Of a DNA stretch of 64,000 nt, positions 19,972-20,793 are shown one piece after another. The DNA comes from Lobosporangium transversale. Lineage: Eukaryota. The stretch lies in the NCBI RefSeq assembly GCF_002105155.1, contig NW_019029004.1:62001-126000 (forward strand), written 5' to 3'. The position numbers were made by a program, and so were the translations under genes. Every line of letters begins with the position of its first letter. The stretch's first letter is position 1. Below the pieces are notes generated by a model, which was not told where the DNA came from, ran no database searches, and worked only from the letters and a program-made list of their open reading frames with translations.

Positions 19972-20793
19972 AATAATAATTTGAGAATAGTACATCAAAC
20001 TGCTTCCATAATAATTATAATGTAGAATGACAATATATTCAATAAATAGAAGAATAGAGGCTGGAAGTAACACTGTAATATTGGGTACCAGAATAGCTTA
20101 AGATGTCTTTGTGACTTGGTAAAAGGAATATTTCCAAGCAACTCTCGAGGCTGAACAGCTTATACTTCATCAGGTTACCAAAATCTCTGTCTGGATATTT
20201 CCTTACCATCCTGTGCTTTTACAGAGACTCTGCACACCAATTTCACCACTCTGGTGATTTTACTGCTACCACTAGATTTGCCCGAGAGAAATATTTATCT
20301 GGTGGGTAGACTCGCAAATGCATTCTATAAAAGAAAATAAAAGAAAAAAAAAATATTGGGAAGTCTACCCACCGCTATGCGCATAATACAGGCCTGCCAA
20401 AAATGAGAAGGTTTTAGACATCAGTGATGTTTGCCAGCTCGCTCTTTGAGTAGTTCTGAATCTCTCTGGTAACGTGGTTACCGATAGAATGACTACATGG
20501 CGATTATGGTTACTGGGTGTCCATATGTCAAATAGTTTACATCCCTGACAGCTACAGACATGTACACAATCAAATCACGCCGTTGATCCATTTCGCATAG
20601 TGATTCTAACCGCAACGTGTTTTATGATACAGTTTAAGTAAGCTGTGAGAATCACTGCTTGTACGGCAAAGTCCTTGAGTCCTAAATAGGTATCCATTCT
20701 GGTTAGGCGTAAGTCAATTACAGATTTTCAAAAAATAAAGTTCCTGGTTCCAGGAATTTGACTTTCATTTCATTCTTTCAATGAGTGCTAGCT

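Follow-up and report, generated by a model that had tools for sequence, protein, structure and literature searches.

Arrays in which Helitrons alternate with gene copies have already been reported in other fungi, oomycetes and poplar, and the locus described here shows no new mechanism. The closest case is ToxB-HLE of Pyrenophora tritici-repentis, in which, according to the accessible part of the report, tandem effector units are split by an abundant Helitron-type piece; the model proposed there combines insertion, a rolling circle and unequal crossover, and the filled single copy is unobserved (bioRxiv 10.1101/2025.11.13.688278). In P. infestans, DC-domain CRN genes lie near helitrons in tail-to-head order (Haas 2009, as cited in the available sections of PMC5289972), and an HVLVxxP-type motif is the reported CRN recombination breakpoint (PMC3726527, available excerpt). 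In the Populus trichocarpa KCS array, a Helitron on the minus strand accompanies each gene, and the proposal there is that an alternative left end lies behind the gene (PMC13253262, accessible text). In addition, tandems of transposable elements in Drosophila were explained by a double insertion followed by unequal exchange (bioRxiv 10.1101/158386, accessible text).

We analysed a 64,000-nt window (the whole stretch of DNA examined) of Lobosporangium transversale. Self-comparison reveals a 6.7-kb tandem unit from the left edge of the window to position 20020, and the array extends beyond that edge. Its features, and its right-hand neighbour, are as follows.

4162..6588, plus strand: CRN copy 1, header A and linker X; 3 exons, 725 codons, open (PF20147, E 1.7e-22)
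10865..13288, plus strand: CRN copy 2, header B and linker X; 724 codons, open
17554..19971, plus strand: CRN copy 3, header A and linker Y; 2 exons, 723 codons, open
17079..17553, plus strand (also 10390-10864 and 3695-4161): CRN upstream region, 475 bp, from the putative Helitron 5' end to the ATG
13338..17078, minus strand: non-autonomous Helitron, 3741 bp; 3' end observed, candidate 5' end A^TCCTA
6638..10389, minus strand: second Helitron copy, 3752 bp; 0 substitutions and 17 one-base indels relative to the copy at 13338
1..3694, minus strand: third Helitron copy, truncated at the window edge with about 50 nt of its 3' end missing
13337..13338, unstranded: filled junction, Helitron 3' end CTCG^T on the minus strand, from junction contigs and a depth step
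6637/6638: the other filled junction in the window
20020..20021, unstranded: empty A^T site, 49 nt past the third CRN stop, with identical continuation in contigs of runs X1 and X3
20021..20243, unstranded: 3' flank common to an estimated 3-4 empty CRN copies (depth by subtraction; contigs end at 223/233 nt)
20794..24919, minus strand: FANCM/Mph1-like helicase gene, right neighbour of the array (PDB 9el5_A, E 4.6e-117 for 22598-24919)

The open reading frame at 20794-22347 would be the 3' part of the FANCM/Mph1-like gene. Between this gene and the array lie two short inverted repeats, at 20301-20373 (19 nt, 84%) and 20599-20656 (15 nt, 87%). Elsewhere in the window, a Tc1/mariner-type element (32159-33765) carries a 339-aa open reading frame with DDE_3 and HTH_Tnp_Tc3_2 domains and is bounded by 85-bp inverted repeats of 82% identity.

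The array resembles ToxB-HLE, as far as that report is accessible, in that the Helitron-type piece is absent behind the last copy. Whereas the ToxB-HLE junction measures 251 bp, with non-canonical ends and no RepHel, the element here is 3.7 kb long, apparently RepHel-derived and has TC/CTCG-type ends; and whereas the ToxB-HLE units are perfect, those here are mosaic and come with a base-exact empty A^T site. The CRN superfamily, the tail-to-head copies and the helitron association are common to this locus and to P. infestans. Unlike that oomycete, the organism here is a fungus, and the available sections of PMC5289972 are without junction-level anatomy; such detail may be present in the supplements of Haas 2009 and Zhang 2016. 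In the accessible text on the KCS array, ATC stands behind each gene, as opposed to A^TT here, where the empty form is directly seen. In the Drosophila tandems, as far as described in the accessible text, both insertions are at one site, whereas here they would flank a gene, unequal exchange being the mode of expansion there and the likely one here. Among the records listed by a literature search that covered few subscription papers, none describes a Helitron-CRN array in Mortierellaceae. What is new here is the array beyond the window, the multi-copy empty form, the mosaic genes with intact frames and the splicing in an RNA-type run.

The argument starts from the junctions. The 64-kb window contains exactly three copies of the 10-mer ATAATTATAA, starting at 6628, 13328 and 20011. 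The next letters are CGAGCCGG in two cases (6638 and 13338) and TGTAGAATG in the other (20021), i.e., two CRN genes read ...ATAA|CGAG and the third reads ...ATAA|TGTAG, with 49 nt from the CRN stop to the junction in all three copies. The initial annotation had described this pattern, and it holds in the window as well as in short-read contigs. Both junction forms are found in the two ordinary DNA runs (X1 and X3), and the filled form also in RNA-type and base-converted libraries. Since each form is present in independent contigs, neither is an assembly artefact. In both DNA runs, a junction contig covers 13308-13361, with a loose end TGTAGAATG... behind 13337. Among the matches listed, this is the only non-Helitron continuation after ATAATTATAA, in one contig per run, and that contig continues unbroken past 20020/1 for 223 nt (X1) and 233 nt (X3). 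A coexisting allele in which the Helitron is followed by TGTAGAATG should break the empty contig after about 30 nt; judged from the contig graph, such an allele is thus not evident in X1 and X3, whose contigs can drop rare forms. In short reads, the junction of an extrachromosomal circle is the same as the tandem junction.

To place the 3' end of the element, we used contigs of public runs over 13220-13480. From bin 13328-13336 to bin 13337-13345, depth rises from 253 to 1118 in X1 and from 3460 to 15350 in X3, which is 4.4-fold in both runs, and several contigs begin at 13337 or 13338. Four of the five kinds of foreign left flank listed are compatible with A^CGAG, and the fifth is a degenerate end. 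The element thus belongs to a multi-copy Helitron family that is present at other A^T sites and whose true 3' end is shown by these observations to be CTCG. They also bear out the proposal that the unit junction sits exactly at the Helitron 3' nucleotide; copies of the family ending elsewhere than CTCG, which would have made that coincidence meaningless, were searched for and, among the flanks listed, are represented by the degenerate one at most. The A^T at the break is weak evidence alone, since 27% of the A's in the window have T as the next letter; the weight comes from a break that falls on the family terminus to the base. Relative to CTRR, the end CTCG keeps CT and the final G but has C instead of a purine as third base, and fungal variants such as CTTG are published (PMC4289320). 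The accompanying A^T insertion without target duplication is seen on the 3' side, from the empty site at 20020/1, and would hold likewise on the 5' side. As far as sequence can establish it, the CTCG|T junction was made by a transposase.

Several observations adjoin the junction. In a single run, X5, an RNA-type contig (13187-13398) links the CRN stop across the junction to about 60 nt of the Helitron's 3' end, beyond which depth is at background; the Helitron end may thus serve as 3' UTR of filled CRN copies. No empty-form contig of X5 appears over 13220-13480. Run X8 is a bisulfite-type (base-converted) library in which all five CpG guanines of 13339-13363 read as converted, and the Helitron end at the junction looks unmethylated in its contig consensus. 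We rejected X8 as another strain with other flanks, because its four loose ends equal the window with every G as A (115/115 letters). The junction contigs of X1 and X3 cease matching at 13361; position 13362 belongs to the mismatched pair of the hairpin, and most copies may carry another base there.

The anatomy of the element includes the following.

13349..13365, minus strand: GC-rich palindrome, 17 nt with one mismatch, ending 11 nt before the 3' terminus (predicted structure)
13703..13879, minus strand: RepHel remnant, a Helitron_like_N-like stretch; an internal deletion joins it to a C-terminal IVYK..L* tail
up to about 15781: further RepHel remnants

On the minus strand, the element ends ...CCGCGGC GAA GCCACGG TCTCCGGCTCG, and the palindrome has a z of -1.3, which is not significant alone. 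In size and position it agrees with the hairpin of canonical Helitrons (Helitron1), which measures 16-20 nt and lies about 11-12 nt before the 3' end. The A^T target, the lack of a duplication, the palindrome 11 nt before the 3' end and the TC start (putative here) are as in Helraiser and Helibat1, as far as these are described in the accessible parts of PMC4778049 and PMC5876387; unlike Helraiser, the element ends in CTCG rather than CTAG/CTRR, and its transposase gene is broken and mostly deleted. The candidate 5' end reads A^TCCTA(C/T)ATAT at 17078. X1 and X3 each have a contig end at a distance of 6 nt from 17073, on one side or the other; the distance is 38 nt in X2 and 9 nt in X5. Homology to the Helitron family continues past 16384, and in the leftward direction paralogous CRN upstream sequence can be followed to about 17140 or further, with a loose end at 17167. 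Position 17078 lies between the two and is the likely 5' terminus. A 5' end at 15950 (A^TCTATATAATT) was discarded, because the stretch 15911-16304 is spanned by diverged copies and one deleted copy has 14203 fused to 16325. Also dropped was a reading of the G/A variants at 17073 as array versus dispersed copies, which is unsupportable because X2 passes through with A.

PF14214 (Helitron_like_N) is the sole family match, in both copies tested, at an E of 0.16, which does not reach the cut-off, and none of the six whole-frame Pfam scans of the element gave a match. The CxxC..CC stretch and the IVYK..L* tail presumably correspond to RepHel ends, and together the Pfam match and the termini suggest a RepHel origin. 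The element is internally deleted, and since the Rep and helicase cores are missing, it is non-autonomous. Helentrons (Helitron2) carry subterminal inverted repeats that pair both ends and use a TT target. Here, exact inverted matches between the 80 nt at one end and the 80 nt at the other extend to 7 nt at most; with no paired inverted repeat at its ends and an A^T target, the element is not a Helentron by this definition.

A different segment at 13413-13502 defines a second 3' subtype with about 6-7 copies' worth of depth, and on the minus strand the other listed 3' flanks of the family read TTAG.., TTTT.. and TATTTA... In further elements, the likeness is limited to the last 35-43 nt (loose ends at 13372, 13378 and 13380); these may be short non-autonomous families with a common 3' end. 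Some derivatives carry deletions that fuse 14203 to 16325 and 14142 to 14790. A 1366-nt RNA-type contig of X5 matches 16414-17057, starting about 20 nt inside the putative 5' end, and then continues for about 700 nt of other sequence, as would be expected of another copy's transcript that differs in cargo or splicing. The L. transversale gene model P0086 fuses the decayed frames of the Helitron, on the same strand, to a different P-loop C-terminal domain, which we take to be CRN-like; identity to the frames of the element is 76-94% in the main blocks and 62% in one gapped block. Although P0086 is probably a false gene fusion, the near-identical remnant adjoining another CRN-type domain indicates that the family lands beside such genes. 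A metagenome scan for the Helitron end returned one match, on a GC-rich bacterial-looking contig, which we judged to be chance.

The CRN genes are mosaics. All three are effector-like, with a Crinkler N-terminal domain (PF20147, matched on copy 1), HVFVKPP, GT-AG introns and intact spliced frames. In copy 2, 47 of the 205 header sites differ (header B, 10976-11177), and in copy 3 about 17958-18546 is replaced, from HVFVKPP on, by another intron and linker; this linker swap starts at the type of motif at which module swaps are known in CRNs, according to the excerpt cited above. The splice from exon 1 to exon 2 appears as a loose end at 17989 in run X5, and it is from this end that we guess X5 to be RNA; none of the runs listed with matches is recorded as RNA. 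The C-terminal part has 85 relatives, of which all but the last few are from Mortierellaceae and the rest from other soil fungi, the best being 77% identical. Apart from one-base indels, neither the Helitron nor the promoter differs between copies 2 and 3. Copy 1 differs from them by 34 substitutions in about 3660 Helitron sites, and the CRN 3' part holds 1 substitution in 1116; the Helitron at 1..3694 shows about 0.5-1.7% substitutions relative to the other two. The read-majority letters agree with copy 1 at 9 of 16 checked positions, so that copies 2 and 3 either represent a minor sub-lineage or have common assembly errors. The block-wise differences, together with the header and linker swaps, argue for later or ongoing unequal exchange and conversion. 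Depth increases more than tenfold over the CRN promoter and header (17200-18000), paralogue depth rising from about 17200, and a large genome-wide header family likely supplies the swapped modules.

We also used contig depth, which is no copy number and gives rough estimates, relative to the median of minor contigs (9.4 in X1, n=7; 123 in X3, n=9). Relative depth is 8.8 (X1) and 10.0 (X3) at the CRN 3' end, 6.8 and 6.3 at the filled junction, and 9.5-11.3 in the Helitron interior. The empty path reaches 4.0 and 3.5 by subtraction, matching the neighbouring bin exactly, with inconsistencies of up to about 20% (X1: 82.8 versus 63.5+37.6). The array therefore probably has about 6-7 filled junctions, two of which are in the window. 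By the same measure, the empty form would not be unique in the genome but present in about 3-4 copies, or about 36% of the subfamily's CRN 3' ends; these empty copies have a flank of 223 nt or more in common. Empty copies sharing such a flank are expected of paralogous segments, unlike transposed units. Consequently, the empty Helitron A^T site with which the array was said to end is real, but it is not a unique array end, as its contig has about 3.5-4 times the depth of single-flank contigs.

How the repeat unit arose is a separate question, because two insertions, an alternative 5' start, a 3' read-through and a composite element all lead to the identical unit. The explanation that we favour, with about an even chance of being right, is two ordinary insertions beside CRN paralogues, recombination between them and subsequent unequal exchange. 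One Helitron would have inserted behind a CRN gene and another in front of the same or a paralogous gene, with transposase presumably supplied in trans, and recombination of both Helitrons would yield the CTCG|T junction and the repeat unit. This step could be an unequal crossover with an empty copy or, within an existing CRN cluster, a deletion between direct-repeat Helitrons; unequal exchange then likely expanded the array. Both junctions have canonical letters (CTCG|T as observed, A|TC as placed at 17078), and TTATAATT as 3' flank is AT-rich like the others listed for the family, which is also the 3' preference of Helraiser (PMC4778049, accessible text). With about a third of the subfamily's 3' ends empty, empty recombination partners exist. 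The unbroken empty contig also fits two insertions, as a deletion between the Helitrons would consume the Helitron-TGTAGAATG intermediate. Against this explanation, it takes two insertions of equal orientation that each lie no more than about 0.5 kb from a member of a single small subfamily, Helraiser is without local hopping in the accessible text of PMC4778049, and no intermediate allele was seen in the X1 and X3 contigs. The initial annotation had proposed that a second Helitron inserted behind the CRN gene, followed by unequal crossover with an uninserted chromatid. That model is favoured in modified form: several empty CRN paralogues with an equal 3' flank appear to exist, so that no uninserted sister chromatid is required. 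The CRN-Helitron-TGTAG allele suggested as its check is the one not evident in the contigs of both DNA runs.

Somewhat less probable, and short of an even chance, is a single transposase event that linked the Helitron ends to different A^T sites, 2.9 kb from one another, and so doubled an entire expressed CRN gene. Taken together, an alternative 5' start, a 3' read-through circle and ends on two sister chromatids share this lesser probability. The 5' flanks of the two sites are alike at 7 of 12 letters (p about 0.04), which suits a single event at least as well as two insertions. With a one-off alternative 5' start, which we regard as unlikely on its own, transposase acting in trans would nick CTACA^TTATAA upstream of the first-site Helitron, CRN gene and Helitron would be copied to CTCG, and a circle or displaced strand would re-enter the locus before unequal exchange. 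One insertion is then enough, and both the empty right end and the absent Helitron-TGTAGAATG allele are accounted for. Aberrant Helraiser junctions include upstream DNA joined to the right end (PMC5876387, accessible part), and an equal model was proposed for the poplar KCS genes (PMC13253262, likewise); however, the left terminal sequence is essential in Helraiser (PMC4778049, accessible text). Of 12 letters, 7 agree between the site and the 5' end, but the site begins with TT rather than TC, and 5.6% of the 5098 minus-strand A^T sites in the window match equally well. This start also predicts one extra copy of the 3' subtype with a non-CRN flank; the subtype/junction depth ratios are 0.98 and 0.92 versus 1.17 expected, with noise of about 20%. 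A 3' read-through circle, a third route beyond the two models of the initial annotation that gives the identical unit, is in our view comparably doubtful. Here, a second-site Helitron would start at TC, bypass CTCG and copy the CRN gene with its promoter; after closure at GTAACA, the circle would recombine into an empty CRN paralogue. Its chemistry is the best documented, with about 11.7% 3' transduction with intact Helraiser, and circles, in the accessible text of PMC4778049. The repeat unit is identical, the likeness of the two 5' flanks would reflect an origin-like stop, and empty paralogues exist. A hairpin or CTRR would not be needed for closure at GTAACA. The donor allele (Helitron, then TGTAGAATG) is nevertheless not evident and must have been lost, and integration of the circle by homology is an assumption.

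We consider it very improbable that the 6.7-kb unit is a mobile composite Helitron carrying the CRN gene to new A^T sites, as the initial annotation had alternatively suggested, even though a CRN/helitron association is noted in P. infestans (Haas 2009, in the available sections of PMC5289972). In X1 and X3, the CRN end is left by one listed contig only, always into TGTAGAATG, and the multi-copy empty form with at least 223 nt of common flank is as in segmental copies. Dispersed 6.7-kb units were not found among the listed contig continuations of either run, where contigs drop rare forms, and the supposedly acquired 5' end at TTATAA looks like an ordinary 3' target flank of the family. Hardly credible, finally, is an assembly artefact or a recombination breakpoint that met the element end by chance. 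The 17 one-base indels between two otherwise identical Helitrons do indicate that the assembly is noisy here and may be collapsed, but both junction forms recur in independent short-read contigs, the filled one also in RNA-type and converted libraries, and the break is on the family terminus to the base.

For P. infestans CRNs, ToxB and poplar KCS genes, proposals that Helitrons drove effector amplification were based on less exact junctions. At this locus, the ends look canonical, one site is seen both filled and empty in a single genome, and three different header/linker mosaics stand next to each other. Given the exact ends, both site forms and the mosaics, long reads or a few strains could separate a recombination origin from a rolling-circle origin. 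If a single event were true, a CRN gene would have been duplicated like a giant target duplication, seeding an array of shuffled CRN modules, and the base-exact empty site and the empty paralogues would make 'helitron-mediated CRN evolution' testable at one locus in a culturable soil fungus. Altogether, these results suggest that CRN modules are shuffled inside such arrays in a fungus outside the plant pathogens.
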